A stretch of DNA of 32,000 bases from Candidatus Electrothrix yaqonensis (GCA_047651235.1 CP178758.1:3120001-3152000), one strand, 5' to 3'; positions 829 through 22,503 are shown, numbered from the stretch's first letter. Notes: a model not told the origin generated them from the letters alone. Program-made: numbers and translations.

Positions 829-1699
829 GGTCGAAGCGTATCAGGGCAGCATAATCCAGCACGGGCCGTATAATGACCGGATTTATCTTATGCGGCTCGC
901 CGATCAAACTCCGGCAGATTTTCCGCAGCAGCTGATTGAGCTGGCAGGAGGCAAAGGCTACTCCAAAATCTTTGCCAAGGTGCCGGAAGATGCGTCTGCT
1001 GATTTTCTGCAGGCAGACTTTGTAAAAGAAGCAGAAATTCCTGGTTTCTTCTCCGGCCGAACGGGCGCTCTGTTCATGGCGTATTATCTGCAGAATGCCC
1101 GCAGGCAGGAAGATGATGTTGCAGCCCTGGAAAATATCCTGCATATTGCTGAAGACAAGCGGGGCACAGTAGTGTTGCCTCCTGATGCGCGGTTTATCCT
1201 CCGTCGATGCACCCGGAACGATGTTCCGGCAATGGCGGCAATCTATCAGCAGACCTTTGCCTCCTATCCCTTTCCCATCCACGAGGAAGACTATCTGCTG
1301 GAGACCATACAGAGCCATGTGGCCTATTTCGGCGCGGAAACGAACGGGGAACTGGTTGCTTTGGCCTCAGCGGAAATGGACAGGGAGGTTTCCAATGTGG
1401 AAATGACCGATTTTGCCACCCTGCCTGCTTATGCAGGCAATAACCTCGCCCTGCATCTTCTCCGTTGTATGGAAGAAGCAATGCAGGAACAGCAGCTCAG
1501 CACGGCCTATACCATTGCCCGGGCCGCATCCCCGGCCATGAATCTCACCTTTACCCGGGCCGGATACTATTTTGCCGGTCGATTAAAAAACAACACCAAT
1601 ATCTCCGGTAAGATTGAGAGCATGAATGTGTGGTATAAACCGCTCCGCCTCTCACCGAAAGAATCCGCCAGGCCAATCAGCAGAATAAAAGGGTGTTGA
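809..1699 (+). CDS. ablB: Putative beta-lysine N6-acetyltransferase (GNAT)
   Basis: 296-aa ORF overlapping ablA by 20 nt. The C-terminal half has a GNAT-like core ([11 protein letters not shown]...[22 protein letters not shown]). The ablA-ablB pairing is the known N-epsilon-acetyl-beta-lysine osmolyte pathway layout. Confidence 0.75.
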
Positions 1700-1824
1700 A
1701 AAGTAGTTTGTCCCGTAGCTGTAATGATGGCTTTTTTTTTTCGCTTTGAGACCTCCGAAGAACTTATTCCGACCTGCTTTCCGGGGTTAATCTATTGAGT
1801 TCAACCAATAAAGATTCCGTGCTC

Positions 1825-1941
1825 TTATCTGTCGCTGTATTTGCGATACAGCTGCTTGACTTCGTTTACAGACAGTCCGGTAATTTCGGCAATAACCTTT
1901 ATCTCCAGACCTGTACGTTTTCCGTCATAATCTTTTCCTTG
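1825..1941 (-). pseudogene. Decayed gene fragments: a start-less 38-codon tail ending in an HTH-like motif, overlapped by a 9-codon stub that copies the 5' end of the 4221-4508 gene
   Basis: The minus frame reads ...QGKDYDGKRTGLEIKVIAEITGLSVNEVKQLYRKYSDR* (stop 1825-1827), with TGA just upstream and no start codon. In another frame, ATGACGGAAAACGTACAG (1928-1911) plus its upstream AAGGAaAAG copies the RBS and first 6 codons of the small TM gene at 4508. Confidence 0.35.
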
Positions 1942-1969
1942 TCATGGAAGAGGATATCCAGCCTTGGAG

Positions 1970-1994
1970 TATCAATGCGAATTAGGAGTTGAAA
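1970..1994. repeat. 25-nt dispersed repeat, copy 1 (inverted relative to copy 2 at 22714-22738)
   Basis: tatcaatgcgaattaggagttgaaa is the exact reverse complement of tttcaactcctaattcgcattgata at 22714-22738. Similarity extends to about 31 nt with 2 mismatches. Confidence 0.85.
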
Positions 1995-2151
1995 ACCGAT
2001 CCGATAGACCTCCTGTAAAACTGCCTGTTCTTCCGGGCGGTGCGTCTTCCCGCTTTTCAGAATTGATACCGGTCAGACGGCGGAATGATTCGGGACGGCG
2101 GGACAGTTTTTCATGAGTATGATTTTTCGACCTCTAGGGGGATGGCAGTAC

Positions 2152-2178
2152 AAAAAAAGTGGCTGAAAAAATATCAGC
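2152..2178 (-). terminator. Weak candidate intrinsic terminator after the TPR gene
   Basis: On the minus strand: GCTGA-tattttt-TCAGC, then cac and TTTTTTT. The stem is only 5 bp. Confidence 0.3.
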
Positions 2179-2222
2179 ATCCGCCGTTTCTGTCAAATCA
2201 CAAAGTTTTGCGGGAGGTCTCT

Positions 2223-3437
2223 TTATTCCTGCTCTTTCAGCTGGCGTAATTGTTCCAGACACTTCTCCGCCCGCAGGGGCATAGAGATCTCGTGATATTT
2301 ATCTGCGGCCTTTTGCCAATACTCCTTCGCCTGTTGTGTTTTCCCTTGGGCCTGATAAAGTTCGGCAAAGCCTTCCAGACATTCGGCCACACCTTCCCAG
2401 CCCTCAATACGTTCAAACTGAGCTGAAGCCTGTTCAACATACTTTTGGGCAGCAGCAAACTCACCGGTCTGCACGGCCAATTTGCCGAGCATTCGTAGGC
2501 TGTCTGCCTTGCCCACCGATTCATTTATGTCACGGTATACTTTCCGGGCATTTTCAAAATCTCTCCGAGCCGCAGGCAGTTCCGAAAGACGAAGATGCAC
2601 GTCGCCGAGCGCTTGAAGGCAGTTGGCCTCGCCGAGACGAGAACCGATCTCACGGTAGACAGGAAGGCATTCTTCATAACGCTTCCGAGCCGCAGGCAGT
2701 TCCGAAAGACGAAGATGCACGTCGCCGAGCGCTTTCAGGCAGTTGGCGGCAAGGTAGGAATCATCCTCCTTAATCACAGACAAGGGTATCTGCTCCAAGG
2801 CATCCTTGGCCTGCCGGTTGCGGGAGTAGCGCATATCCAGATTTGCCTGCCGGAGCAGAAAATACAGCACTGCCTTATCCGGCAGCCGCTTCATTTCCCG
2901 ATGTTCCTGTACTGCCTGGAGCAGGCTTTCTGCCCTGTCATAGGCAAAATAGGGCGGGTTCGTCCAGTCAACACAGATATTATTCAAGGCATCAGCTCCC
3001 TTATCCGGTTCGGCAATCAACTGGTGATAGATGGTTTCGATCTGCCAAGTAAGATCGTCTTGGTCCTGTTCGGCGCAATAGGTAAAGGCGCAGCGGGAGA
3101 GATCGCAGTACTGCTCTTCATCTTCCAACCAAAGCCGCTCCTGCAACAACCTACGGCTACGTTCATGAACATTATACCGCTCTTCAACGGGATACGGTTC
3201 AACATAGGGTTGCTCAAGCAGTTCGGCAAAATGAGTCTCGCCCAAGGGCTGATCAAGCAGGGCATTGAGAAAAGCACGGTCAAAAAAACGGGGCACCGCA
3301 GCAGCCCGGACAGCGGCTTGCAGTTCTTCCGGCAGCTGGGCCATGCTGAATCGCAGAGACAGCCAGTCACGTTCCTCCTGACTCTCGCAGGCCTGGAGCT
3401 GCTCCAGTAATTCCTGATAGGGATTGGTTTCTGACAT
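2223..3437 (-). CDS. Winged-helix-like N-terminus plus TPR repeat protein (sensor/scaffold part of a split STAND NTPase)
   Basis: 404-aa ORF. Repeated about 40-aa TPR-like units occur (ANCLKALGDVHLRLSELPAARKRYEE / ANCLQALGDVHLRLSELPAARRDFEN, and others). The N-terminal 60 aa (LPEELQAAVRAAAVPRFFDRAFLNALL) resemble the region after the NTPase in STAND proteins. It is in frame with the upstream ORF, and no SD precedes its ATG. Confidence 0.8.
   Translation of the reverse strand: MSETNPYQELLEQLQACESQEERDWLSLRFSMAQLPEELQAAVRAAAVPRFFDRAFLNALLDQPLGETHFAELLEQPYVEPYPVEERYNVHERSRRLLQERLWLEDEEQYCDLSRCAFTYCAEQDQDDLTWQIETIYHQLIAEPDKGADALNNICVDWTNPPYFAYDRAESLLQAVQEHREMKRLPDKAVLYFLLRQANLDMRYSRNRQAKDALEQIPLSVIKEDDSYLAANCLKALGDVHLRLSELPAARKRYEECLPVYREIGSRLGEANCLQALGDVHLRLSELPAARRDFENARKVYRDINESVGKADSLRMLGKLAVQTGEFAAAQKYVEQASAQFERIEGWEGVAECLEGFAELYQAQGKTQQAKEYWQKAADKYHEISMPLRAEKCLEQLRQLKEQE
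2564..2747. repeat. 120-bp-period tandem duplication inside the TPR gene
   Basis: 2564-2614 is identical to 2684-2734 (51 nt). After 2 mismatches, a further 11 identical nt follow (2617-2627 = 2737-2747). This corresponds to one 40-aa repeat unit. Confidence 0.9.
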
Positions 3438-3443
3438 GAGGAA

Positions 3444-4217
3444 TCAGGACAGCCGGGGAAAGGTTTTGATAATCTCGATGATCTTAGCCGGATTCCCCTG
3501 CATGGCGTGGCAGATACCGGCCAGAAAGGTCAGGGGAGGATCAACCGGAACCCGTAATCCCAAAGCCTTGACTACGGGCAGCCAGTGTTCGGCATCCGGC
3601 ACCCCGTACAACGGATGTTCACAGCAGCAGTCAGCCCAATCCTCGCAGGTATCAGTGGAAGGGATCTCCTGCCCGGCCACCACTAGGCGCAACTGACGGC
3701 TGGCACGGGGCAGCCGCACAATGATGCTGTTCAACCAAGTGCGGAGGTCATCCGCCGCCTTTTCATAGGTGTCCACAGCCAATAGCATCGGGTTGTCGAG
3801 CTGATCCGTATCCTGCAACCAAGCGTCGGTCAGCATGATGCGCCGTTCCTCGCGCTCCTCCTTGCCGCCGCTATTGAGAACCACATTGATCTGGTTGCTG
3901 TTGCCCTCAATCTGATTATCCCGGATTTCCACGTTATGCTGTTGCAGCCATCGACTGAAGGCAGGCAGTTTGTCCCGACCCGCATGATGAACCGTGCGGC
4001 TGAAAACCTCGGCGGCATTGACCCCGTCCTGCTTGCAATCCACAAAGATCTGATAGGCATCAGTCGGAGCCATGCGGCGGCAATTACGCAACAGGCTGGT
4101 CTTGCCGCTGCCGGATTGACCGCTGAACAGAAGAATCGGCTCCGAGCAGTCCTGCGTCCATAGGCGGGCAAAGGAGGCACGCGGCCCCTGATAATTCGCT
4201 AAAATATCTGCTTTCAT
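3444..4217 (-). CDS. P-loop NTPase, STAND/NB-ARC-like (NTPase module only)
   Basis: 257-aa ORF with Walker A GQSGSGKTS, Walker B-like MLLAVDTYE, RLVVAGQE after it, and a C-terminal GxP-like motif (MQGNPAKI) as in AP-ATPase/NB-ARC helical domains. Its ATG lies 3 nt after the upstream TGA. Confidence 0.7.
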   Translation of the reverse strand: MKADILANYQGPRASFARLWTQDCSEPILLFSGQSGSGKTSLLRNCRRMAPTDAYQIFVDCKQDGVNAAEVFSRTVHHAGRDKLPAFSRWLQQHNVEIRDNQIEGNSNQINVVLNSGGKEEREERRIMLTDAWLQDTDQLDNPMLLAVDTYEKAADDLRTWLNSIIVRLPRASRQLRLVVAGQEIPSTDTCEDWADCCCEHPLYGVPDAEHWLPVVKALGLRVPVDPPLTFLAGICHAMQGNPAKIIEIIKTFPRLS

Positions 4218-4220
4218 GGG

Positions 4221-4508
4221 TCAGCCGTTGCTGTTGAGCCGGTTCTTGTCCCCGTCAATATCGCTGTTTTCCACTTGGGCACCGTTACGGGCAGTCACTT
4301 CGTTCTCATGGCCTTTAATCTTGGTGCCGGTAATTTTAGTGACCGGTGGTTCAGCCGGGGTATGGGTTTCCCCACCGACTTGGACACCGTCCCGGTTGAC
4401 ACTGATGTTCCCGGAGCGGAGCTTGCCCCGCAGAACAAAGACGACAACGCCGATAACCACCACCAAGGCCACAGCAATAATCAGCGCGAGCTGTACGTTT
4501 TCCGTCAT
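4221..4508 (-). CDS. Small single-pass membrane protein (N-terminal TM helix, Gly/Asn/Val-rich tail)
   Basis: 95-aa ORF with a good SD (TAAGGAGAAGAGC-ATG). The hydrophobic helix is LALIIAVALVVVIGVVVFVL. The tail has loosely repeated (I/V)xGxxNxV-like segments. I recognise no family. Confidence 0.6.
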   Translation of the reverse strand: MTENVQLALIIAVALVVVIGVVVFVLRGKLRSGNISVNRDGVQVGGETHTPAEPPVTKITGTKIKGHENEVTARNGAQVENSDIDGDKNRLNSNG

Positions 4509-4561
4509 GCTCTTCTCCTTATCAACCTATCGAATAGAATATCCTTTCACACTCCGGATAT

Positions 4562-6067
4562 TTACTTCCTCTTCTTCGACTCCTTCTCTTTCACCTCAGC
4601 CTTCAGATGCGGAAACAGAATCACATCCCGAATGGACGGCGAATCCGTGAGCAGCATGACCAGTCGGTCAATCCCGATGCCTTCCCCGGCCGCAGACGGC
4701 ATCCCGTACTCCAGGGCCCGGACGTAATCCGCATCCAACTCCGGATGAATTTCATCATCATCGCCGCGCTCAGCAATTTGCTTGGCAAAGCGTTCATGCT
4801 GATCAATAGGGTCGTTCAGCTCGGAAAAGGCATTGGCGATCTCCCGGCCGGTAATGAACAGCTCAAAACGGTCGGTGATGGTCGGGTCGTCCTCGTTGCG
4901 GCGGGCCAGCGGTGAAACCTCGGCCGGATAGGCCGTGATAAAGGTCGGATCGATGAGTTTCTCCTCCACCAGCAGCTCAAACAGCTCGGTCTTTGCCTTG
5001 CCCGGCCCGGCATCGGGCTGCAGCTTGATCCCGTTCTTTTTGGCAAGCCCCATTATGGTAGTGTCATCCTTGAGCAGCTCAGGATCAATACCGCCCACTT
5101 CGATCAGGGCCTCGTCCATTGTGTAGCGTTTCCAAGGCGGAGCCAGATTCACCGGCATTCCCTGATAAAAAATTTCGGTGGAGCCGCAGACCTGAGCAGC
5201 AATTGAGGAAATCATCTCCTCGGTCAGATCCATCAGATCCTCATAGGTCGCGTATGCCTGGTAGAACTCCAGCATGGTGAATTCCGGATTATGGCGGGTG
5301 GACAGACCCTCGTTGCGGAAGTTCCGGTTGATCTCAAAAACCCGCTCAAAGCCGCCCACCAGCAGGCGCTTGAGGTAAAGTTCCGGGGCAATGCGCAGAA
5401 ACAGTTCCATGTCCAGGGCATTATGATGCGTCCTGAAGGGCTTGGCTGCCGCCCCGCCCGGAACCGGATGCATCATCGGAGTTTCCACCTCCAGAAAGCC
5501 CCGCTCGGTAAGGAACTGCCGGAGCAGACGGATGATTTTCACCCGTTTGCGGAAGGTGTCGCGCACCTCCGGATTAACGATCAGGTCCACGTAACGCTGG
5601 CGGTAGCGGGTCTCCACATCAGTGAGGCCGTGAAATTTTTCCGGCAGGGGCCGCAGGGACTTGGTGATCATGTGCAGCCGGAATGCCTCGATGGACGGTT
5701 CACCGGTCTTGGTCTTGAACAGTTTGCCCTCCACCCCGACAATATCGCCCACATCCCATTTTTTGAAGAGCTGAAATTCTTCGCCCAGCAGATCCCGGCG
5801 GGCATAGATCTGCATCCGTCCGGTTTCATCCTGAAGGTGAAAAAAGGCAGCTTTGCCGAACTTGCGCAGCGACATGATCCGCCCGGCAACCCGGTACACG
5901 GTATTGCCCGGAGCATGGCTTTCCGGCTCTAGGGCATTAGCCAAGGGCAGAATTTCCCTGACCGGTTGCGGATCTTTGAAGCTGTTGCTGAACAGGTTGA
6001 CCCCGGCCTCGGACAGGGTTTGGGCTTTTTCACGACGCTGCTTGAGGAGTTGGCTTTGGTTATCCAT
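4562..6067 (-). CDS. lysS: Lysyl-tRNA synthetase, class II
   Basis: Starts [16 protein letters not shown]. Class II motifs are [18 protein letters not shown] and [12 protein letters not shown]. The start was moved to the ATG at 6067, because the 51-codon upstream extension of the tracked ORF is AT-rich and not LysS-like. Confidence 0.95.
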
Positions 6068-6192
6068 GTTCGTCCATGTACTTTGTCTTATGTCATTAAG
6101 GGTATTGAAGATAATGCAAAATAAATACAGTTGCTTAAATCGGAAAAAGCCATCTATGATGGCACAAAAGTAAACGAAAACAATTTGATACT

Positions 6193-6292
6193 TAACTGAT
6201 GTTACGCAGCCGAAATGCAAAATTGGCAGATTCCACGTTTTGGGTGTCTCAGTAACTTACTGATCTTTTATTTGCGTGCGTAACATCAGTTA
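6193..6292. repeat. 100-bp MITE-like element / long hairpin with perfect 16-bp terminal inverted repeats
   Basis: taactgatgttacgca (6193-6208) is the exact reverse complement of tgcgtaacatcagtta (6277-6292). The right arm overlaps the gatB stop codon. The core 14-mer recurs at 22764-22777. The interior contains gtgtctc and agtaac/ttactg motifs shared with the 7881-7993 array. Confidence 0.7.
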
Positions 6293-7720
6293 TGAATTTT
6301 GCCCCAGCTCCTCCGCAAACAGCTTATTCGCCAGCTGCGGGTTAGCTTTGCCCTTGGTTTTCTTCATCAGCTGACCGACAAAGAAACCTATGACCTTGGT
6401 CTTACCGTCGCGGAACTGCTGGGCCTGATCCGGGTTGGCGGCAATGATCTCCCGGACAATGGCGGCCAGTTCGCCCTCGTCGCTCATCTGGATCAGTCCC
6501 TTTGCTTTGACGATCTTTTCCGGGTCATCGCCGGACTCCAGCATGTGGGCAAACACGGCCTTGGCGATCTTGCCGGAGATGATGCCCTTTTCCACCATCA
6601 GCAGGAGAGCGGCCAGTTGCGGCGCGGTAATCCGGCATTCGCTGATCTGCTCCGGTGCATATTCCCGCAGCAGCTCGGTGGTCATGAAGTTGGCCACCTT
6701 TTTCGGGTTGTTGTATTCCGCGCAGACTTGCTCGAAATAATCAGCTAAGTCACGGGAGGCGGTCAAAGTCGCGGCCACGTCTTCCGGCAGGCTGAGTTCA
6801 GCCATGAAGCGCTGTCGTCGCTCATCGGCCAGCTCCGGCAGTTCAGCCCGCATCCGCTCGATCCACTCCTCATCAATATGCACCGGCACTAAATCCGGAT
6901 CCGGGAAGTATCGGTAATCGTGCGCTTCTTCCTTGCCGCGCATGGATTCGGTTTTATTGCTGTCCGGATTCCAGAGCAGAGTGGCCTGGGTCACGGAGCC
7001 GTTATCCAGAAGGATATCCCGCTGCCTGCGCTCCTCGTACTCAAGAGCGAGCTGGACATTGCGGAAGGAGTTCATATTTTTCAGCTCCGTCCGGGTGCCG
7101 AACTCCGCCTGCCCCTTGGGCCGCAGGGAGATGTTGGCGTCGCAGCGGAAACTGCCTTCCTGCATGTTGCCGTCGCAGATATCCAGGTACCGGACAATGC
7201 TGTGCAGTTTTTTCAGATAGGCCACTGCCTCTTCCGGCGAGCGCAAATCCGGCTCGCTGACGATTTCCAGGAGTGGAGTACCGGTCCGGTTCAAATCCAC
7301 ATAGCTGTTCGGCTCCAGCTCATCATGGACCAGCTTGCCCGCATCTTCCTCCATGTGAGCACGGGTGATGCCGATGGTCTTTTTCTCCCCGTTGACCTCG
7401 ATCTCCAAGCGACCGTGCTCGGCAATGGGCAGCTCGAATTGGGAAATCTGGTAGCCCTTGGGCAGGTCAGGATAGAAGTAGTTCTTGCGGGCAAAACGAT
7501 TCTCCCGATTGATGGCGGAATCCGTGGCCAGGGCCAGCTTGATGCCGTTTTCCACCACCTGCTTGTTCAGCACGGGCAGCGAACCCGGCATACCCAGGCA
7601 GACCGGACAGGTATGAGTGTTGGGCGGCGCGCCGAACTCGGTGGAACAGCCGCAGAATATCTTGCTCTTTGTCTTCATCTGGGCATGAACTTCCAGCCCG
7701 ATCACGGTTTCAAATTCCAT
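6290..7720 (-). CDS. gatB: Asp/Glu-tRNA(Asn/Gln) amidotransferase subunit B
   Basis: 476 aa, starting [25 protein letters not shown]. Full-length GatB-like sequence with the C-terminal YqeY-like tail. Confidence 0.95.
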
Positions 7721-8040: not shown

Positions 8041-9396
8041 CTACTCCTTGTTGCCGCGCCGCTGGACGTTTGCTGCGCAGCCTTCTTCGATGTACCATGC
8101 CCCTTTGGTATTGCCCTGAAGATCATTGTCTTCGATAATGCCACCACCGCCATCGCATATACGAACACCCGACCAGCCATTTTTAGAAATGCGGTTAAAG
8201 CGTAGAATCGGATTTTTGGTTGTGTTAATTATAATGCCGCCCTGCGCGTTGGAGAATATCTCATTATGCTCTATCAACCCTTTACCGTTATTACAAATAA
8301 GGACACCAGCTGCTGGTCCATCATGAATGTGGCAGCGACGCAGAATCGGGTCTGCGTCGTTAAGGATTTGAACACATATATTACCTTTGCTTGAAATGTC
8401 GCAATCCTCTATTTCAAGCCTACCTTGCTCAATCCTTATATCATTTAAGGTAAGGTTAGCAACCCTTCCAATGTCAGTTTTTGACAAAATAGCTGGGTTA
8501 CCAACAAGCTGGATAATAATCTCGCTTCGCTCTCCATCACCTATGATCTCAACAGGCTTGTCTATCACAATGCTTTCTTTATACAAGCCGGGTCGCACAA
8601 GAATGCGTGTGCCCGGTTCAGCAGCCTTGAGTGCAGCAGTTATTGTCGCATAGTCACAACGATATAAAGGATCAATAACCAAGGTCGGTGGATCTGTCTT
8701 TACCGTTGGCGCAAGCTGTGGCCTGCTCTCCGACGGTGGCGGAGCGTAATAGTTGTTGATCTGCGTACCGATAGCATTATTGCCCTGCGCAATGCTCTGA
8801 TCTCCTCTACCAGTTTTAGTAAATGTGTTGCTGCTGGCAGGCGTGGAGTCGTCCTTCTCTGGCTGTAAGCAGGATGCTTCCGCCTCACTTCGCTCCAAGG
8901 CCGCAACAATCTGTTCCGCCATTTTAGCAAGAGCCTTGCGCACCGACGATGAAGTGAATTCTTCAAAACGCAACTCCCGCCAGTCCGCATACTGTCGCGC
9001 TGCGAGAACCTGCGCCAGTTTGTCATGTTCCCGCTTTGCTTTATCTTCCAGCACAGGACAGCGTACATAATAGACCGGCAGAATCAGGTCACCCCGTCCC
9101 AGCTCTTCTTCCCGCTTCAGGAAATACTTCAGCTCTTTCCGGCAGGCATTGCTTTTAAAAAAGGCTGGCGTGATGATCGGAATGAGAAAGGTGGTCGCAG
9201 CTAAAGACTCGTGTATGCGCTTCTCCCACGGCTGACCCCAGGCAATGTCCTCTCGGTCTTGAAAGATATCAAACGGCTTGCCGGTCTGCATCCGCACTTC
9301 ACCGCTCAGGCATTCACGGAACCGGGTCAGCCGACCCTGCTCATGCTGGTCGTCCAGATTCACATAACTCATGAAGGCAAGTGCTGTCCGGCTCAC
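8041..9396 (-). CDS. TIR domain protein fused to right-handed parallel beta-helix (PbH1-like) repeats
   Basis: The N-terminal TIR pattern is ALAFMSYVNLDD...DIFQDREDIAWGQPW...FLIPIITPAFFKSNACRKELKYF, which includes the conserved Glu of the WCxxEL-type motif. A linker follows, then repeats such as IEHNEIFSNAQGGIIIN, ILRFNRISKNGWSGVRI and IIEDNDLQGNTKGAWYI. The preferred start is GTG at 9396 (GGAGGGaattgagGTG gives MSRTALAFMSY). The tracked ORF start at 9456 is a TTG. Confidence 0.8.
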   Translation of the reverse strand: MSRTALAFMSYVNLDDQHEQGRLTRFRECLSGEVRMQTGKPFDIFQDREDIAWGQPWEKRIHESLAATTFLIPIITPAFFKSNACRKELKYFLKREEELGRGDLILPVYYVRCPVLEDKAKREHDKLAQVLAARQYADWRELRFEEFTSSSVRKALAKMAEQIVAALERSEAEASCLQPEKDDSTPASSNTFTKTGRGDQSIAQGNNAIGTQINNYYAPPPSESRPQLAPTVKTDPPTLVIDPLYRCDYATITAALKAAEPGTRILVRPGLYKESIVIDKPVEIIGDGERSEIIIQLVGNPAILSKTDIGRVANLTLNDIRIEQGRLEIEDCDISSKGNICVQILNDADPILRRCHIHDGPAAGVLICNNGKGLIEHNEIFSNAQGGIIINTTKNPILRFNRISKNGWSGVRICDGGGGIIEDNDLQGNTKGAWYIEEGCAANVQRRGNKE

Positions 9397-9471
9397 CTCA
9401 ATTCCCTCCGCAGCGGCAAGAGCTGCCTGTTCATCTTCTTGAAGCAGGGGAAACAACTCCCCGGCGCAGCC

Positions 9472-10076: not shown

Positions 10077-10682
10077 TCAGAGCAATACTGCCGGTTGAAG
10101 ATCATCCAGTTTTGCCGCTGTTTCCGGGTCTGCCAGCCGGAGCGCAGAGTTCCAGGGAATCTGCATGACCAGAGAAAGATCAAAGGTCTCCCGGAACAGA
10201 TCTTCCAGCAGAGCAATTGCCTTGCGGCTGCCGGAAAAAAACAGCAGGGTGTTGTCGGCGGCATTCCAGCAGAGGTCGTAGACCGACGGCATGGGTGGCG
10301 ACTTGCGTACCAGCTCGGCCCGTATCCGCTCTTTGATCTCCAGGCGGACAGAGCGGCTCAGACGGCGCAGCTCTTTTTCCTGCCTGATCCGAGACTCTTC
10401 CTTGGCAGTGAACTTCCTCAGCACGGCCGCAGACACCTTGCGTTCATCAATCCGCATGGACAGCACCACGTAATCCCCGGCAGCATAGGAGCTGTAGGCA
10501 AAGTCAGCATCAAACATATCCGCCACAGACACCCAGCCGATGGAATACTCATCAATGGTATCGTCAATATCCTGAAACGAGTGCTCCGCCACCCGTTCCG
10601 CAATAAAATCCCAAAAATTCTCCGGCACTTCACCTTCTACTATAAAGCGGGTAAAGGAAGCGCTTCCTGATAATAGTCCCAT
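10077..10682 (-). CDS. RdgC-like recombination-associated protein, N-terminal two-thirds (tentative)
   Basis: The start was moved to the ATG at 10682 (SD AGGAGA upstream; MGLLSGSASFTRF). IGWVS..., RKVSAAVLRK... and LLFFSGSRKAIALLEDLFRETF parallel RdgC blocks. Confidence 0.55.
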   Translation of the reverse strand: MGLLSGSASFTRFIVEGEVPENFWDFIAERVAEHSFQDIDDTIDEYSIGWVSVADMFDADFAYSSYAAGDYVVLSMRIDERKVSAAVLRKFTAKEESRIRQEKELRRLSRSVRLEIKERIRAELVRKSPPMPSVYDLCWNAADNTLLFFSGSRKAIALLEDLFRETFDLSLVMQIPWNSALRLADPETAAKLDDLQPAVLL

Positions 10683-10844
10683 ATCTCTCCTGTCAAAAAT
10701 ACCTGCAAAGCGTTCTCTGCTCTTCTCTGCGCGGCCACCAGACCACAGCGAAATCTTTATAACAAAGATTGCTGCAGGCAACAAGCACTCTCTTCATGGA
10801 CGGACAGAGGAACAGAAAAAACAGACAGGCGCTTTTTTTTTCTG

Positions 10845-11552: not shown

Positions 11553-12419
11553 TCAATGATGATCGCCAGCACCCTCGTAGTCTCCCTTGCTCATACCACG
11601 GGGCAGGGCCGGTGGCGGTTCCGGTTGAATCGGATTAAAGCGATGCTCCTGAACAGTGTGGGGATTGTGGCATTCTGTACAAGCCCACCACCGCTTTTTC
11701 CCTCCGACTTTCCATTCGCCGGTACGCTTGCCGTGGAGACCCATCCGCCATTCGCTGTAAGTAGCGCCGTGACAGCTTCCGCAGACCTTATAGGATTCAT
11801 TAAAGCTGACCTCGTTTCCTCGACGGTCAACCAAGGTGTCACGATTGGCGGCATTATGGCAGTCAAAACACCAGATTGCTCCCCGGCCATGCTGCAGATT
11901 CGTGGCATCGCTGATGATATCCTGATGATTCCCGATCTGGCGGGGATCATTCTTCGGGGCATCCATATTTTCACCGACATAATGACAGCCGCTGCACTGC
12001 ATGTTTGTTTGCTTTATTGTTTTTAAGTGCTCCGCACGGGGCCTGATGACCGCCTGGGCAAAATCGCCACCCGTTTGATCGCCGAAGCTCGGCATGTCAC
12101 CCATAGGTTCAGTACCATAGTAGGGATCGCCGTACCAGAGAACTGCTCCGGTGGTGGGTGAACACTTCACATTGGGATAACCGTACTTGGGGACAGCATT
12201 ATCCACCTTTGAGAGTTCGGTGGCGCCTTTGATACTTTCATAGCATGCAGCTGGTGCAGCATCGGACGCAGCTTGGACTGCACCGGACTCGTCTTGTGCC
12301 GCATCTTCTGCCAGAGCCTCGCCAGGCATATTCTGGAAGAGCAGGCCGCCGGTTACCAAGGCTACGGCAAAAAGGCCGTAGAAAGCTGCTGCTCTCACAT
12401 ATTTTCTCCCTGAAATCAT
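11553..12419 (-). CDS. Membrane-anchored periplasmic tetraheme cytochrome c
   Basis: Four CxxCH motifs (CSGCH, CFDCH, CGSCH, CTECH). N-terminal hydrophobic anchor AAAFYGLFAVALVTGGLLF. ATGA overlap with the NrfD-like gene. Confidence 0.85.
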   Translation of the reverse strand: MISGRKYVRAAAFYGLFAVALVTGGLLFQNMPGEALAEDAAQDESGAVQAASDAAPAACYESIKGATELSKVDNAVPKYGYPNVKCSPTTGAVLWYGDPYYGTEPMGDMPSFGDQTGGDFAQAVIRPRAEHLKTIKQTNMQCSGCHYVGENMDAPKNDPRQIGNHQDIISDATNLQHGRGAIWCFDCHNAANRDTLVDRRGNEVSFNESYKVCGSCHGATYSEWRMGLHGKRTGEWKVGGKKRWWACTECHNPHTVQEHRFNPIQPEPPPALPRGMSKGDYEGAGDHH

Positions 12420-13678
12420 TTCGCATCTCCTTCCGCTGTTTTGGGATCTCGTACCTCACCGGTCAATACGCCGATAGCACCCTTGGTGAGCAGGGTCAGC
12501 ATGATAAAGCCAGTTGCCCAGATGAACAGGACGTTGAAAATTTCAACAAGGGTCGGATGATACACGGCATACTCACCCAGGGGGGTCGGACTGAAGGCCG
12601 GAAAGACCAGCACTGCCGGTTTTTCGATCAGGATGATTAGGAAAACCACCAGACAGAGCACCGGCAACAGGCTGTTGTAGCTCTTCCGTATTGTGGTATT
12701 GAGCAGCATGAGGAACGGTAACACAATCAGGGCCATAGTCATCCGAAACCACGGGGAATAGGCATCCAGACCGTGGTGACCATGCATCATGTACTCCAGA
12801 GAAGCGGCATGATGGGTACCCGGATACAGTTCTGTAAAAAACTCAGAGGCAAAGACCAGGATGATGATCCCCAGACTCCAGACAATGACCTGGGAAAAGA
12901 AGTCAATCACCGAGTCAGCAATATGCAGCTTGCTGAATTTGCGGATCAGGAGGAAAAGCATAATAACCAGAGCAGATCCTGATGCACCGGCCATAGATAA
13001 AAAGGCAAAAGGGAGGACAGCAGTATGCCATGAGGAAATTCCTGCATTGCTGCTGAGGATGAAGGCGGTGACGATATGAATCAGCGGCCCCCAAACCACG
13101 GCTATGTAGATCAACGGGGTGTAAAATTTGGTGTTCATCGGCTGCCCGATATAGCGCATATACAAGAGATAGGAAACCGCCACCAGGTTGATACCAAGAT
13201 ATACGTTCAGTACAATGATATCATAGGTGAGCATCGAACTGGGAAAGTTGAAGATACCCAACCCGGGAATTGCGTGCCACGCTCTGTCCGGCCGACCCAT
13301 GTGGAACATGATGAAGTTGAGGCCGATAATCACGAAGGTCAGAGCGATGATCTCACCAAGGACGGCCAAGTCCTTCATGTCTTTTCGTTTATAGATATAG
13401 GCGGGAATGACCACCAGCACGGCCGCCGCCGCAATATGGGCGGTGAATATAAAGTTGGATATGAACAGTTCCCAAATGATCTGGTCTGTGGCCCCGGTGA
13501 CGATGAGGCCCTTGGTCATCTGCACGTAGGTGGTGTATAAACCCACAACTGCAAAAAAAGAAAGAAAGAGCAGCCAGCCATAGTAGAGGTTTCCTCCTTT
13601 AACGGCATAACTGAAAAAGTCACGGGCGAAAGCTATCGGCTTTTGAGAAGCTGAAGCTATTTGCTTTTTCATTGTCAT
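12416..13678 (-). CDS. NrfD/PsrC-family integral membrane quinone-interacting subunit
   Basis: 420-aa highly hydrophobic multi-pass protein between an FeS subunit and a cytochrome. The layout is as in NrfCD/Psr/Cbc-type complexes. Confidence 0.85.
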   Translation of the reverse strand: MTMKKQIASASQKPIAFARDFFSYAVKGGNLYYGWLLFLSFFAVVGLYTTYVQMTKGLIVTGATDQIIWELFISNFIFTAHIAAAAVLVVIPAYIYKRKDMKDLAVLGEIIALTFVIIGLNFIMFHMGRPDRAWHAIPGLGIFNFPSSMLTYDIIVLNVYLGINLVAVSYLLYMRYIGQPMNTKFYTPLIYIAVVWGPLIHIVTAFILSSNAGISSWHTAVLPFAFLSMAGASGSALVIMLFLLIRKFSKLHIADSVIDFFSQVIVWSLGIIILVFASEFFTELYPGTHHAASLEYMMHGHHGLDAYSPWFRMTMALIVLPFLMLLNTTIRKSYNSLLPVLCLVVFLIILIEKPAVLVFPAFSPTPLGEYAVYHPTLVEIFNVLFIWATGFIMLTLLTKGAIGVLTGEVRDPKTAEGDAK

Positions 13679-13691
13679 TATAAATACCTCT

Positions 13692-14738
13692 CTAATCCAT
13701 GTAATAGAAAAATTTTGGATCGGTGTTATACGCTTCCTTGAACCGGAACACCTTCTTGGTCGCCAAAACCTTCCTTACTTCGCTTTCAGGATCGAGCAGG
13801 TTGCCGAATTTTCTTGCACCTACGGGACAGGCTTCCAGGCAGGCCGGATAGCGTCCCTCTCTGACCCTCTGTAAACAAAAGGTACATTTTTCCATGACTC
13901 CGCGCATGCGGGGACGGTTCCCCAAATAATGGGTCTTGGGATTCATGTCCTCATTCGGTAATACCGGTTCGCCCCAGTTAAAGCGGCGTGCCCAATACGG
14001 ACAGGCCAATTGGCACATCCGGCAGCCAATGCACCAGTTGTAATCAATAACCACGATTCCGTTGGGATCGCGAAAGGTTGCCCGGACCGGACATGCCTTG
14101 ACACAGGGCGGGTCTTCGCATTGATGGCACTGCACCGGAAAATAAATAGCATCGTCTTCCGGAACCTGCTCCGGTTCATAGTAATGCTCGGCAGCACCGG
14201 AAATACCGACATGTTTATCAGCATGACCACCGGATTGGATACCGTAGTCTCCCAAGGGATTGCTGTCAGGAGAGCCCTCGTTCAAATTTTTCAGTTCGAA
14301 CGTGTTATTGCCCCGCTCCATCCGCAACACCCGAATCCACTGGATTGCTGGATCACGGGATTGATTGTTTTCCCTGACGCAGGCCTCAACGCAGCGACGG
14401 CAGCCGATGCATTTGGAAATATTGAGTGCATAGCCGAACAGCACCCCCTCCGGGGCAGGCGTGTCAGCCACTGTGACCTGCTTACCGAACTGCTCTGTAT
14501 AGCGCTCTTCCAAGCGGGCAATGGCCTTTTCCTTCTGGGCGTCACTCATCAGCTCAAAATGCGTCTGCAATGCTTCGGCTATGCTCGTTGCCTCGGCGGT
14601 AGCTGCGGTGGCTGCCGGGGCGGCAACTGTTGCAGCGGCAGTAACCCCCATCTTCTTCAGGAAATCACGGCGGGATTCTTTCGCCTTCCCGTCGTCCTGT
14701 CCTTCAACCATCTCTTTTTTTCTTTTGTCCTCCGACAT
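13692..14738 (-). CDS. Tat-exported 4x[4Fe-4S] ferredoxin-type subunit (NrfC/HybA/PsrB-like)
   Basis: Twin-arginine signal SRRDFLKKMGVTAAATVAAPAATAA. Four Cys clusters (CIGCRRCVEAC, CHQCEDPPCVKACP, CIGCRMCQLACP, CTFC...CLEACP). The preferred start is the ATG at 14738 (GGAGG 9 nt upstream). The tracked ORF extends to 14780. Confidence 0.9.
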   Translation of the reverse strand: MSEDKRKKEMVEGQDDGKAKESRRDFLKKMGVTAAATVAAPAATAATAEATSIAEALQTHFELMSDAQKEKAIARLEERYTEQFGKQVTVADTPAPEGVLFGYALNISKCIGCRRCVEACVRENNQSRDPAIQWIRVLRMERGNNTFELKNLNEGSPDSNPLGDYGIQSGGHADKHVGISGAAEHYYEPEQVPEDDAIYFPVQCHQCEDPPCVKACPVRATFRDPNGIVVIDYNWCIGCRMCQLACPYWARRFNWGEPVLPNEDMNPKTHYLGNRPRMRGVMEKCTFCLQRVREGRYPACLEACPVGARKFGNLLDPESEVRKVLATKKVFRFKEAYNTDPKFFYYMD

Positions 14739-14776
14739 CGTGTATTGCCTCCGTGAATATGGTATCTTGAATACGC

Positions 14777-15085
14777 TCAAGATACCGTCCGGTAATGGTT
14801 ACGCAGGATACGGTCAAGCATCTGTTGCTTCTCTTCCTGGGTCAGGATGACCATTTTTTTGCCGGCCATGATCTGCTGTTGCCGCAAATCCTCCTCAGCG
14901 GAGCGGGCACGGGCGTTCACATCGCCGACTTTTCCGGCGGATTTTGTGATCGCTGTTCCGGTCAAACCGGCAGCCACCACGACACCCAGTGCAGCTGCTG
15001 CCCGCCGGAGAAAGCCCCGCCTGTCGGCAATCACCTCATTCTGCCCTTTGTGCGTACTCACACGCATCATGTGCTCTTCAGCCAT
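14777..15085 (-). CDS. Small protein with a twin-arginine signal/anchor and no recognisable cofactor domain
   Basis: 102 aa with a strong SD (AAGGAGGccgttATG). DRRGFLRRAAAALGVVVAAGLTG is followed by a charged helical tail. It is the first gene of the operon. Confidence 0.6.
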   Translation of the reverse strand: MAEEHMMRVSTHKGQNEVIADRRGFLRRAAAALGVVVAAGLTGTAITKSAGKVGDVNARARSAEEDLRQQQIMAGKKMVILTQEEKQQMLDRILRNHYRTVS

Positions 15086-18740: not shown

Positions 18741-19418
18741 GTGCTCTCCGATTCTTTGGAGGAAATCTACCGGCGCCTGCTGGAGCATTTCGGGCCGCAG
18801 CACTGGTGGCCCGGTGATACTCCGTTTGAGATTATGGTGGGGGCGATTTTGACCCAGAACACCAACTGGCAGAATGTGGAAAAGGCCATCAGCAATTTGA
18901 AGGCGACAGGTGTGCTGTCGTTTCCGGCCATATCTGCCCTTGACCGGGAAGAACTGGCTGAATACATCCGTCCGGCAGGATATTATAATATTAAAGCAGG
19001 CCGGTTGCAGAACCTGTTTTCCATGATTGAGGAACAGTGGAGCGGTGATGTGGATGCTCTGCTTGGGCAGTCTGCTGCCGTGCTGCGGGAACAGCTGCTT
19101 TCGGTCAAGGGGATCGGGCCGGAGACGGCGGATTCAATTATTCTTTATGCAGCTGAACAGCCGGTTTTTGTGGTGGATGCCTATACCCACCGCATCCTGC
19201 TGCGCCACGAACTGATTTCTGAAGACTGCGATTATCACCAGATGCAGGAGCTGTTTATGGATAATCTGGCTGAAGATACCGCCTTATTCAACGAATACCA
19301 TGCTCTGCTCGTGCAGGTCGGCAAGCGTTTCTGCAGGAAATCCAAACCGCAGTGCAGGGCGTGCCCGCTGGCCGGAGTTAACGATATAAACCTAATGACA
19401 GAGGTTATCCCGGACTGA
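18741..19418 (+). CDS. Endonuclease III-related HhH-GPD family protein
   Basis: 225 aa with a GTG start. Contains [16 protein letters not shown] and the HhH segment [19 protein letters not shown]-terminal [13 protein letters not shown] carries only three Cys. Confidence 0.8.
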
Positions 19419-22400
19419 CCGGTTGAACAGCCTGTTCACTGGGGTGGCCCTGTTTCTTCTTTCTGTCAGTCCGCTGCATGTCAATATACCGGGAAATAAC
19501 GGTGAACATCTCCTGCTCGTTCAGCGGCTTGCCGATATGTGCATTCATACCGGCTTCCCGGCTTTTTTTCTGATCCGAGGTCATGACATTGGCGGTCAGG
19601 GCGATGACAGGCAGGTTTTTATGCTGCGGCATTCTGCGGAGTTCCCGGCAGGCCGTGTATCCGTCCATAACCGGCATCTGAATATCCATGAGTACGCAGT
19701 CAAAGGTTTCAGTCTGCAGGATCTCCAGGGCTTCGGCCCCGTTGCTCGCCACGGTGACAGTAATCCCTTTGCGGCCCAGCAGAATTCTGGCCAGCTCCTG
19801 ATTCAGGGCATTGTCTTCTGCCAGCAACACCTTGGCGCCCTGCAGATCGAAAAATTCTTCCTGCATTTTTTCCCCCTCCCGCTCCTCCGGTTCACTGTCA
19901 CAGGCGGCAAAGGGCAGAGTAAAATAAAATCGGGATCCCTGCCCCACTTCGCTCTCGAACCAGATTGCGCCGCCCATCATCTCAACGAGCTTTTTACTGA
20001 TGGACAGTCCCAGGCCGGTACCGCCGAACCGTCTGGTCGTGGAACTGTCTGCCTGACTGAAGGACTTGAACAGTTTACTCTGTTGTTTCGGGGTCATGCC
20101 GATCCCGGTGTCAGCAACACAGAATTCCAGCATAACGGTACTGTTCCGCCGGTCGCGTTGTTCAACAGTGATGGTCACCCCGCCCTGACCGGTAAACTTG
20201 ACGGCGTTGTTGCCCAAGTTGATCAGCACCTGCCCCAGACGCAGGGGATCGCCCTGCAGCCGGTCCGGAATATCAGCCGCAATATCAACATCCAGCTTCA
20301 GCCCCTTTTCCGAGACCTTCAGATCGATCATATCGATACAGTTCTCAAAGACTTTGGTCAGACGGAACGGAACTGTCTCGATCTCCAGTTTTCCTGCCTC
20401 GATCTTGGAAAAATCAAGAATATCATTGATGATACCGAGCAGAGACTCTGCGGAAATATACACTTTTTCGATATAGTTCCTCTGTTCTTCATCCAGATCG
20501 GTTTCCAGCGTCAGGCTGGACATGCCGAGAATGGCGTTCATCGGGGTGCGAATTTCATGGCTCATATTAGCCAGAAATTCGGATTTGGCTTCACTGGCTG
20601 CCTCTGCCCGCTGCTGAGCCTCGGCCAGTTTTACAGTAATGTATTCATATTCAGTGATATCTTCGAGAATACCGTTGACGGCAAGCAGCCTGCCTGAGCT
20701 GTCCCGAACCGGATGCGAGGAAACCCTGATGGTCCGCAGTTCGCCGTCCGGGTGGAAGAACTGCATGTCATGCTGAACAGAATCGGCTTTACCGTCCTGT
20801 ATTCTGGAAAGGTGAAAACGCGCCTGATCCAGGGATTCCGGAACCCAGTCAATGATTCTGCTCCATGCTATCCCCTTGCCTTTGTGCAGTACTTCCTGGG
20901 CGCAGCCGAAGACAGAGGTCATGCTGTTACTTGCATAGGTCCATTCTTCAGCATCCGGCTTCTGGCTGAACACAACAAACTTGTCGCCGATACTCTCAAC
21001 AAGCTGCTGATATTTCTCCCGGCTTTCTTTCAGCAGGGCTTCTTTTCTCTTGCTCTCAGTAATATCACGGACCAGCTGCAGCACGGAACAGCCGGTGTCG
21101 CTCTCTGTACATCTTGTTGCGGTAATCTCAAAAAATCGTCTGCTGCCCCCTGCAGGAAGAGAGCAGACCGACTTTGCCTCTTTCAGGGCGGTGTTCACAT
21201 GCGGGCAGTACCACGGACTCTGCTCGCCATCAGCCAGAAGGGTGCAATTTTTTTCTGTCATGTCCCCGAACCAGTCGATCATTACCTGATTCATGTAGCG
21301 CACCGTATGATCGTCATCAATAATGATCAGCCCTTCGCCGAGCCGGGCAAGGGCGTCAATAATGGCCGAGGATCGGGCCAGAAAGGCTCTGAGTTCGCTG
21401 TTCACCTTTTTCAGCTCAGTGACTCTGGCATTGAGTTCAGCTGTCCGTTCCCGGACCTGCTGTTCCGCCTTGGCCAGTTTCCAAGCACCGAAGGCAATGA
21501 GCAGCAGCAGGACTGCACAGGCTCTGGTGATCTTTCTGCGGACAGCATATATGATTTCACTGATCACTCCGCTGTTTACACGAGAAACGACCTTCCAGAA
21601 GTACTCATCTGTTTTCTGCGGAACAGAACCGGATCTGCCGGATTCTTCAATCTGCAGCTCCTCCAGCGGCTGCACGGTGCTCCAGACCCATAAACCGTCC
21701 CGGTTGAGCAGAGACCCCTTCTGCCGCTGCCCGATTTCCTGCCAAACTGCCGGGAAACGCGCTTGCAGACGCAGCTCCTGCCGGTTGAACATGAAACCCC
21801 ACTCGTCCTCATGATCAGGGCTGAGCAGCCAGTATCCTTTGCTGTTCAGCACGGAAATACGGTCTCCGGCAGCAGCAGTGGCTGCCTGAAAATTGTCCAC
21901 CATGTTGCGGGCGGAATAATTCAGGATCAGAATACCGAGCCGGTTGCCCTGTCGGTCGCTCAGCGGAGTGGCAATGCGGATTGTCGGCTTCAGGGGCTGT
22001 TCGATTTTGCTGTGCTCGATATTGAGATCCAGGGGTGAGATAAAAATCTCTCCAGGCGCCAGAGCAGCCGCTTCGGTAAAATAATACCTTCCCTGTTTAT
22101 TCTGCAGTTCCTCCGGCGGGATGATTCTCGGCCGGTCCGGCGAATAATCCACCCGTACCCGCTCCATACCGGCGCTATCCAGCCAGCGCACCTGATCATA
22201 TATCCCTTTACTATCTGAAAAAACAACAAAGTCCTCGGCAAGATGCTGCAGATTCGCGCTGTCCGGCCTGCGTATCCGGTCAATCAGCTCATGCTGACCT
22301 GCCAGGTAAAGCAGATCCCTGCAGATGTTCTTCAGGGTATAAGACAATGTGCCCGCCCCCTGACCGACATACAGGGTTTCCCGCGTTATCAGGTGGTTTA

Positions 22401-22503
22401 TCTCGTTTTTTATTTCCTGGCGGCCGTACCACCAGGCACCTACCAGCAGCAAAACGAGAGCGGGAACCATGCGTTTCAGAAACAGGGCGTATTGAATCCG
22501 CAT
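19405..22503 (-). CDS. Hybrid sensor histidine kinase/response regulator (2 TM, Cache-like periplasmic domain, PAS domains, HisKA, HATPase_c, REC)
   Basis: H-box [21 protein letters not shown]-boxes DTGIGM and [21 protein letters not shown] domain [12 protein letters not shown]...[15 protein letters not shown]-terminal TM, about 290 aa, then a second TM. Confidence 0.9.

Follow-up and report, generated by a model that had tools for sequence, protein, structure and literature searches.

The cassette described here occupies positions 4508 to 2223 on the minus strand of a 32,000-nucleotide stretch of the Candidatus Electrothrix yaqonensis genome (GCA_047651235.1; CP178758.1:3120001-3152000), the whole of which is referred to as the window. 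It comprises three open reading frames (ORFs), encoding a small single-pass membrane protein (ORF1, 95 aa), a stand-alone P-loop nucleoside triphosphatase (NTPase; ORF2, 257 aa) and a tetratricopeptide repeat (TPR) protein (ORF3, 404 aa). The three genes probably form a conserved operon for an NLR-like (STAND-type) conflict or defence system, the parts of which are permanently separate proteins. The architecture is split, the gene junctions are of the coupling type, the ORF1 position is a variable effector slot, ORF1 and the NTPase have a short motif in common, and the copy of this motif in an NTPase loop is linked to the presence of separately encoded partners. The cassette is compact and abundant and dissects an NLR into three functional parts, each of which can be expressed, mutated or swapped alone, so that effector recruitment and the nucleotide switch become separately testable. 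Its most notable feature is the motif of the membrane protein and the ATPase loop; the common reading frame of the three ORFs, to which a preliminary description of this DNA had drawn attention, is a coincidence and not a lead to recoding.

In the proposed mechanism, a trigger would bind the TPR array of ORF3, and oligomerisation of the NTPase, dependent on nucleoside triphosphate, would gather its loop motifs. The gathered loops would dock onto or template the paired motifs in the ORF1 tail, which is predicted to be cytoplasmic and ends in both copies, by beta-rung stacking as in HET-S/NWD2 and BASS. The clustered ORF1 helices may then damage the membrane, resulting in abortive infection or cell suicide.

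Related loci (numbered L) were searched for with two sub-alignments, the 27-sequence alignment being highly diverse; 56 were fetched and the three genes mapped in each, with both junctions readable in 32 and the NTPase/TPR junction in 48. In addition, an exhaustive profile search of 1.84 billion representatives returned 1621 relatives at E<=1e-3 (190 at E<=1e-30), which represent clusters at 50% identity and whose architectures were inspected in the best 150. The order of small ORF, NTPase gene and TPR gene recurs in the 56 loci, down to ~30% identity, and an ORF1-type protein is kept upstream of the NTPase in nearly all of them. The NTPase homologues (n=36, 37-91% identity) are 172-266 aa long, none exceeding the stand-alone form, and nearly all of the best 150 of the 1621 representatives are 250-270 aa long; no NTPase-TPR fusion was found in either set. 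The cassette is very likely a genuinely split and translationally coupled operon. Among the explanations raised in the preliminary description (UGA readthrough, a recently nonsense-split gene and a genuinely split three-component system), the last is the one that the comparative data support.

A motif common to the ORF1 tail and the NTPase loop

ORF1, for which no Pfam match was obtained, begins with M-T-E, and D or E is found at position 3 in most family members. Its hydrophobic helix reaches a maximum 19-residue Kyte-Doolittle mean of 3.49 (at residue 7). The slot occupied by ORF1 holds a transmembrane (TM) helix in most loci, a 369-aa alpha/beta-hydrolase with the same C-terminal motifs in L036 (Abhydrolase_6, DUF676), EAD7 in L032 and L040 (E 1e-19 and 8e-24) and a TM helix followed by the motif and EAD7 in L035.

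The motif is ~17 aa long, G/N-rich and of the form h-x-h-x-x-N-x-x-x-G-x-x-N/Q-x-I-x-V; two copies are present in ORF1 and one in the NTPase. The family consensus of the ORF1 tail reads ISGNKxxGxxNxIxV ... VxVxDNxxxGxxQEIxV. The single NTPase copy (NVEIRDNQIEGNSNQINVV, with G105, N108 and I110 invariant) lies in an exposed loop that is modelled with low confidence in the isolated protein (predicted local distance difference test score, pLDDT, <50 at residues 100-106). When the family profiles of ORF1 and the NTPase were aligned with hhalign, the sole match was that of the motif to the loop (E 2.8e-4, with a probability of 41% only, over 21 columns). In 34 loci, the NTPase motif was compared with its own ORF1 tail by the best ungapped BLOSUM62 score, which averaged 26.8, as against 7.8 +/- 5.6 for shuffled tails, and exceeded the 99th percentile of the shuffles in 59% of the loci. 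Non-cognate pairs scored 21.8 (permutation p = 5e-5, a value inflated by the relatedness of the loci). Striking pairs include SGNTLKG / SGNTLKG in L049, DNKIRG / GNKIRG in L041 and GNVLAGVNNSINVA / GNTLVGKANSIRVA in L032.

Most stand-alone NTPases (118 of 132) contain the loop motif, as against 2 of 25 NTPases fused to an effector, an adaptor or EAD7 (Fisher p = 6.5e-16, inflated by relatedness, phylogeny not being corrected for). Its presence was scored with a looser regular expression, since a stricter pattern under-counted it. Common in stand-alone and rare in fused NTPases, the loop motif can be regarded as a docking element for a separately encoded ORF1-type partner, and docking of ORF1 onto the NTPase loop through the motif is rather favoured. 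Amyloid-like templating by the motif is a tentative suggestion, made by analogy with the systems considered below.

In BASS pairs, the effector opens with a hydrophobic helix, is acidic at position 2-3 and bears from one to three pseudorepeats at its C-terminus, and the receptor carries a single copy; alternative effectors are alpha/beta-hydrolase, TIR and CHAT, intergenic distances are short or overlapping, and the pairs occur in multicellular bacteria (10.1101/2020.01.06.895854; 10.1101/2024.11.07.622273). Pairs of a Bell-domain protein and an NLR with BASS1-10 motifs were described by Dyrka et al. 2020 (10.1101/2020.01.06.895854), and Bab/Agp with BASS11 in E. coli is an experimentally validated abortive-infection system (Ibarlosa et al. 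2024, 10.1101/2024.11.07.622273). In the cassette, too, the gene of a small putative effector directly precedes that of the receptor (BASS genes often overlap or are spaced by <=10 nt), with an N-terminal hydrophobic helix, an acidic residue (here at position 3), a short G/N/Q-rich C-terminal motif and one receptor copy. Both have alternative effectors of the hydrolase, TIR or caspase type and 'all-in-one' fusions, BASS11 is also linked to EAD7, and the filamentous growth of cable bacteria parallels the occurrence of BASS in multicellular or filamentous bacteria. According to the hhalign match and the cognate scores, the C-terminus of the effector and the neighbouring receptor carry the same short motif, as in amyloid signalling pairs. 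The receptor copy, however, is internal, lying in the NTPase loop between Walker A and Walker B and not at the N-terminus. Moreover, the receptor is divided between two proteins, the NTPase and a winged-helix-TPR protein, and just ~50 residues precede the motif in ORF1 (one helix and ~25 residues), whereas the Bell bundle comprises five helices in ~100 aa. ORF1 is not a helical bundle of the Bell/HeLo type and has only the acidic position 3 and the hydrophobic helix in common with it.

Likewise, in HET-S/NWD2 (HRAM) the membrane-targeting effector bears two pseudorepeats and the NLR one, the turns are occupied by N and G, charged residues flank hydrophobic in-out positions, and the output is an N-terminal helix acting on the membrane (predicted here). 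It differs in that there is no sequence homology, in the length of the rung (~19-20 aa here and 21 aa in HET-s) and in the position of the motif in a receptor that is here split.

Several points weigh against a signalling motif of this kind. Apart from the modest hhalign probability and the relatedness that inflates both p values, the motif is rich in charged residues, and its position inside the NTPase domain is unlike the terminal position in every described amyloid signalling pair. Defence, toxicity, oligomerisation and fibril formation are all predictions, drawn from architecture and sequence. Furthermore, with its extreme hydrophobicity, the ORF1 helix probably serves as a constitutive membrane anchor, and ORF1 could be a tether and not a killer.

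The main rival within the split-NLR framework builds on this last point. In the same split module, ORF1 would tether or inhibit the NTPase, keeping it at the membrane by beta-strand pairing, and the output would be of another kind, for instance a signal to unlinked effectors with an EAD or the sequestration of a target. It accords with the Kyte-Doolittle value, with the retention of ORF1 in L055 although the third protein there carries a patatin effector, and with L032 and L040, in which the ORF1 position holds merely the EAD7 adaptor. It is nevertheless unlikely: the hydrolase that may fill the slot ends in these motifs as well (L036), NTPases fused to TIR or PNP lack both the loop motif and an accompanying ORF1, as for an exchangeable effector, and two copies on the effector with one on the receptor match HET-S/NWD2 and BASS.

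The reading preferred here, with ORF1 as effector, can be extended to a widespread, undescribed class of split NLRs in which a beta-rung motif (amyloid-like or a heteromeric beta-solenoid) sits in an internal loop of the nucleotide-binding domain (NBD), a winged-helix sensor acts in trans and polymerisation of ORF1 tails kills the cell; in this full form it is speculative. If beta-templating were to hold true, this would be the first receptor-side signalling motif inside an NTPase domain, amyloid-type immune signalling would reach the Desulfobacterota (cable bacteria) and include a new receptor geometry, and cable bacteria and their relatives would become the fourth lineage tying amyloid-type death signalling to multicellular bacteria. 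The three-gene set is not described in the conflict-system and amyloid-signalling literature examined, and no literature was found that links 'amyloid signaling' with 'cable bacteria'.

The NTPase, the sensor protein and the conflict-system signature

The middle ORF had been described as a STAND NTPase, and its Walker A, Walker B and GxP-like motifs are all present as described. In the Pfam scan, AAA_22 scored above its cutoff (28.3 bits, cutoff 27; E 2.5e-6), whereas AAA_16 (28.2 bits, cutoff 32.6; E 3.1e-6) and nSTAND1 (18.1 bits, cutoff 27.1) remained below theirs; nSTAND6 (16.1 bits), nSTAND5 and NPHP3_N were further sub-threshold matches. No NB-ARC match was obtained, and NACHT matched some relatives only, below threshold. 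When the ORF2 profile was compared with PDB sequences, only P-loop noise was returned, with Avs4 at E 0.31. In the AlphaFold2 model (pLDDT 89, predicted TM-score 0.85), the fold is that of an AAA+/STAND-type NBD, an alpha/beta nucleotide-binding domain followed by a helical lid; the invariant GxxGxGK and hhhhDT(Y)E motifs are those of a STAND NBD, and the chain ends just past the invariant G241-x-P243 motif. Foldseek matches were 2qen, 1fnn, 8bob_C, 2fna and 8jns (E 4.5e-6 to 1e-4), the proteins named being PAB2304, Cdc6/Orc1, MalT (TM-score 0.58, root-mean-square deviation 4.7), SSO1545 and CED-4.

ORF3 consists of a constant N-terminal domain and a TPR array. Family alignments showed F52, D53, H91, E92, R95, W131 and H138 of the N-domain to be invariant. 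The AlphaFold2 model (pLDDT 94, built from 13 sequences) has three helices followed by a helix-helix-beta-hairpin-helix unit with strands at residues 79-81 and 88-90, the next helix starting after H91. In the Foldseek top ten, the sole match other than pure TPR proteins was the STAND-TPR protein 6mfv (427 aligned columns). On the basis of this model, H91 may be the equivalent of the winged-helix 'MHD' His of STAND proteins, and the winged-helix unit of ORF3 would then complete the nucleotide switch of ORF2 in trans. GxP at the ORF2 C-terminus and the winged-helix-like unit in ORF3 are on different chains, whereas STAND proteins have both in one; the TPR_12 units correspond to a STAND repeat sensor and are likewise encoded apart from the NBD. 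The N-domain is retained in L055, where patatin replaces the TPRs, and is therefore regarded as the constant partner of the NTPase. In this locus (1372-3027) and in L052, the third gene encodes the conserved N-domain, patatin (E 3e-25) and DUF3734 without TPRs; this patatin variant still has a TM-type ORF1 and the NTPase loop motif.

The array evolves rapidly. TPR proteins of relatives are 404-718 aa long and vary in unit number, and ORF3 itself contains a recent tandem duplication of one unit (2527-2627 and 2647-2747; 101 nt at 82% identity, 120-nt spacing; peptides ANCLKALGDVHLRLSELPAARKRYEE and ANCLQALGDVHLRLSELPAARRDFEN). The closest relatives are 70-71% identical to the window in the N-domain of the TPR protein. 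In L006, the NTPase is 91% identical to that of the window, ORF1 76% and the TPR protein 53%; the corresponding values in L029 are 89%, 40% and 54%. The TPR gene of L007 (from a metagenome-assembled genome of Ca. Electrothrix marina) is interrupted at 4781-5331, with a stop after 78 aa and similarity resuming in another frame, and represents a frameshift pseudogene or an assembly error.

In the family, the NTPase is fused to TIR (P0083), a trypsin-like peptidase (P0109), caspase (P0118), PNP_UDP_1 (P0101), EAD7 (P0073, P0113, P0130) or the winged helix-turn-helix (wHTH) domain Trans_reg_C (P0062). Loci with TIR-NTPase and TPR genes (joined by an ATGA overlap) or with NTPase-PNP, TPR and EAD7-TCAD9 genes both lack ORF1. 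In L058, a 707-aa EAD7 and TCAD9 protein is encoded (3477-5600) directly downstream of the NTPase-PNP_UDP and TPR genes, and that NTPase lacks EAD7. A constant core with exchangeable death/immunity domains and a fast-evolving sensor is the pattern of prokaryotic conflict systems (PMC7159879, PMC8195603), and a conflict role of the cassette is likely.

The effector, P-loop NOD and TPR-like sensor logic, the AAA+/STAND fold, the fast-evolving repeats and the range of effectors are common to Avs1-21, bNACHT and AP-ATPase-TPR proteins, which, by contrast, are single polypeptides of 1000-2000 aa (PMC13581612, 10.1101/2022.07.19.500537); in the cassette, the chain is broken between the lid (GxP) and the winged-helix domain. 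No membership in Avs, NACHT or NB-ARC was found for the three ORFs in Pfam, NCBIfam or PADLOC. The tripartite effector-NTPase-sensor plan of Avs/NLR type that had been proposed is supported by the variable slot, the NTPase fold and the TPRs, but does not apply as a single chain. EAD-coupled systems (Kaur et al. 2020, PMC7159879; 2021, PMC8195603) are similar in placing the same small adaptor on the core and on a separately encoded effector and in combining a constant core with a variable slot, and EAD7 occurs in relatives of the cassette, in ORF1-position proteins and at NTPase C-termini. They differ in that the adaptor in the window is a short beta-type motif and not a helical Death-like EAD, and in that the cassette is not among the described ternary (vWA-MoxR), GTPase, EACC1 and nSTAND systems (PMC7159879, PMC8195603). 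The Pfam scan revealed no EAD domain in the three window proteins.

Family proteins are named 'ATP-binding protein', 'EcfA2', 'hypothetical' or 'TPR protein' in databases (ORF3, which has a 100% identical NCBI counterpart in the cable bacterium Candidatus Electrothrix sp. YB6, 'tetratricopeptide repeat protein'), and Pfam and NCBIfam, like PADLOC, hold no specific model for ORF1 or the NTPase. With its generic annotations and in view of the missing PADLOC model, the family is a candidate for a new entry in catalogues of defence systems. The cassette appears to be a widespread, uncurated, NLR-like conflict system with adaptor-mediated recruitment of effectors, the single frame itself being ordinary. 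Reservations apply on the immune side as well: the role is read from the architecture, PADLOC having no model for either protein; the wHTH domain of P0062 is of a DNA-binding type, and some members may be transcription regulators; and the winged-helix assignment of the ORF3 N-domain found no profile support, either in the PDB profile search (TPR noise) or in the Pfam scan (25 N-domains).

A non-immune function would make the cassette a MalT/AfsR-type NTPase-TPR regulatory switch that exerts housekeeping control from the membrane and is co-expressed with lysS. ORF1 starts 53 nt from the end of lysS and, as had been described, without a convincing terminator between them: a terminator scan of this spacer scored no terminator-like site. 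MalT is among the best structural matches and P0062 carries Trans_reg_C, both of which would suit such a switch. The neighbourhood, however, is not conserved. In L007 (2419-3700) and L029 (745-1317), HEPN-, nucleotidyltransferase- (MNT), HicB- and HigA-like ORFs, judged by eye from their translations, lie between lysS and the cassette; RelE/HTH genes are found in L003, and murJ and fusA in Electronema. As toxin-antitoxin-type genes intervene and the Electronema neighbours are others, linkage to lysS is not general, and the suggestion that a housekeeping transcript has been extended by the module is plausible only in this genome. Together with the filling of the slot by death/immunity domains (TIR, caspase, trypsin, patatin, PNP, EAD7) and a fast-evolving TPR array that changes its repeat number, this makes a regulatory switch quite unlikely, and the conflict system is retained as the preferred reading. 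The 3' flank of lysS in Electrothrix looks like a variable hotspot. A tblastn search of plasmids with one family member gave no match.

Gene junctions and the shared reading frame

The layout given in the preliminary description proved accurate in every detail, including the ORF coordinates, the single frame (all three starts are 2 mod 3) and both junction sequences. Translation of the uninterrupted frame yields 762 codons with two internal stops and the terminal stop. As also described, a good Shine-Dalgarno sequence precedes ORF1 only; direct reading of the sequence revealed none ahead of ORF2 or ORF3.

In related loci, the junctions take other forms. A 4-nt stop-start overlap (ATGA or GTGA) forms the NTPase/TPR junction in ~30 of 48 loci, while TGA followed by 6 nt and ATG is restricted to the cable-bacteria clade and L012. 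Between ORF1 and the NTPase gene, many loci have an ATGA overlap and the others a spacer of 1, 3, 4, 6, 9, 12, 16 or 22 nt. Both junctions are 4-nt overlaps in 11 of 32 loci, and both are in frame in eight, seven of which are cable bacteria (one inheritance) and the eighth the independent L012. Since seven of the eight in-frame loci are one clade and 11 of 32 have two overlaps, the shared frame is at chance level, in line with the expectation of 1/9 stated earlier. Orthologues encode three proteins in different frames, and the frame, once thought suggestive, has lost its meaning; it appears to be a coincidence that follows from the spacer lengths of the cable-bacteria lineage and would have no function. 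The stop-start geometry and the missing ribosome-binding sites, considered in the light of established knowledge of bacterial coupling, point to termination-reinitiation as the best reading: ORF2 and ORF3 would be produced by coupling across the 3 and 6 nt that separate stop and start, one of the options previously offered for their expression.

Programmed UGA readthrough or selenocysteine insertion would instead produce fused isoforms of up to ~760 aa and an active, single-chain Avs-like protein. Such recoding would be helped by the common frame with merely one and two sense codons between each stop and the next start, by spacers that are multiples of three in most cable-bacteria relatives and by the first stop, a UGA followed by C. 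UGA-C is a weak termination context in E. coli. Recoding is nonetheless highly improbable. The frame is not shared in 24 of the 32 loci, in which ATGA overlaps dominate; in L006, whose NTPase is so closely related, a 5-nt spacer at junction 2 breaks it. TAA replaces TGA at junction 1 in L007 and at junction 2 in L045, and the spacer codons are not conserved among close relatives. Neither in-frame layout nor stop identity nor downstream context is conserved among orthologues, as recoding would require. RNA folds of 67-68 nt after each TGA were no more stable than shuffles (z = 1.14 and -0.48). Selenocysteine insertion and structure-stimulated readthrough were rejected on account of these folds and of TAA in relatives, and the lack of any fused form among the 36 homologues and the best 150 of the 1621 representatives speaks against readthrough in general.

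A recent nonsense split, leaving a decaying pseudogene of a one-chain STAND-TPR protein, would explain the common frame, the in-frame stops and the lack of Shine-Dalgarno sequences for ORF2 and ORF3 but was rejected as having practically no chance of being correct, since no NTPase-TPR fusion was found among the 36 homologues and the best 150 representatives, the same three-way break is kept at the same domain boundaries to ~30% identity, each downstream ORF opens with ATG directly past the preceding stop, and purifying selection is evident in all three ORFs, which have many invariant residues.

Feature coordinates and neighbouring genes

The features of the cassette and its immediate flanks are listed in Table 1.

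Table 1. Positions of cassette features and flanking elements in the window.
Feature	Position	Strand	Remarks
ORF1, small single-pass membrane protein, proposed effector	4221..4508	-	M-T-E, hydrophobic helix, short linker, two C-terminal motif copies
ORF1 hydrophobic helix, residues 7-26	4431..4490	-	LALIIAVALVVVIGVVVFVL, then R/K residues
ORF1 motif copy r1, residues 56-73	4290..4343	-	VTKITGTKIKGHENEVTA; family alignment, G66 nearly invariant; paired with NTPase loop by hhalign
ORF1 motif copy r2, residues 77-93	4230..4280	-	AQVENSDIDGDKNRLNS; best ungapped match to NTPase motif here, BLOSUM62 30
ORF2, stand-alone AAA+/STAND-type P-loop NTPase (nucleotide-binding domain and helical lid)	3444..4217	-	
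Walker A GQSGSGKTS, residues 33-41	4095..4121	-	G33, G36, G38, K39 invariant in family alignment
NTPase loop motif r0, residues 94-114	3876..3938	-	HNVEIRDNQIEGNSNQINVVL; between Walker A and Walker B
Walker B LLAVDTYE, residues 145-152	3762..3785	-	D149, T150 nearly invariant
GxP-type lid motif GNPAKI, residues 241-246	3480..3497	-	G241, P243, I246 invariant
ORF3, TPR protein	2223..3437	-	
ORF3 N-terminal constant domain, ~215 aa	2793..3437	-	Helices, winged-helix-like unit, helical arm
YNVHERSRRLL, ORF3 residues 88-98	3144..3176	-	Invariant His/Glu/Arg after beta-wing; candidate STAND 'MHD' counterpart
ORF3 TPR sensor region, TPR_12-type units	2223..2792	-	Pfam TPR_12 E 6e-28
Junction 1	4212..4226	-	AAC GGC TGA CCC ATG; spacer 3 nt; no Shine-Dalgarno sequence
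Junction 2	3432..3452	-	CTG TCC TGA TTC CTC ATG; spacer 6 nt; no Shine-Dalgarno sequence
Shine-Dalgarno sequence AAGGAG	4515..4520	-	Read from sequence; serves ORF1 only
lysS, upstream housekeeping neighbour outside the system	4562..6220	-	Pfam tRNA-synt_2 E 8e-95 and tRNA_anti-codon
Terminator-like hairpin with T-run	2162..2178	-	~45 nt past ORF3 stop

The spacer between lysS and ORF1 contains an A/T-rich inverted repeat (AATATCC-N11-GGATATT; 4521-4556, minus strand) just upstream of the ORF1 Shine-Dalgarno sequence, which was not scored as a terminator by the scan and could be an operator. Upstream of lysS, gatB (6290-7720) is encoded on the same strand as lysS and the cassette. A second conflict-type gene (8041-9456, minus strand) is found a short way upstream of gatB-lysS in the same orientation, 3.5 kb from the cassette; its 471-aa product combines a TIR domain at the N-terminus (TIR_2, E 2.6e-11) with a right-handed beta-helix at the C-terminus (Beta_helix, E 3e-17). 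Elsewhere in the window, an RdgC-like gene (10077-10784, minus strand) and a cytochrome c7/NrfD/4Fe-4S cluster (11553-14780, minus strand) were identified, which are ordinary respiratory genes of Desulfobulbaceae, as well as a large PAS-histidine kinase-receiver hybrid at 19405-22503.

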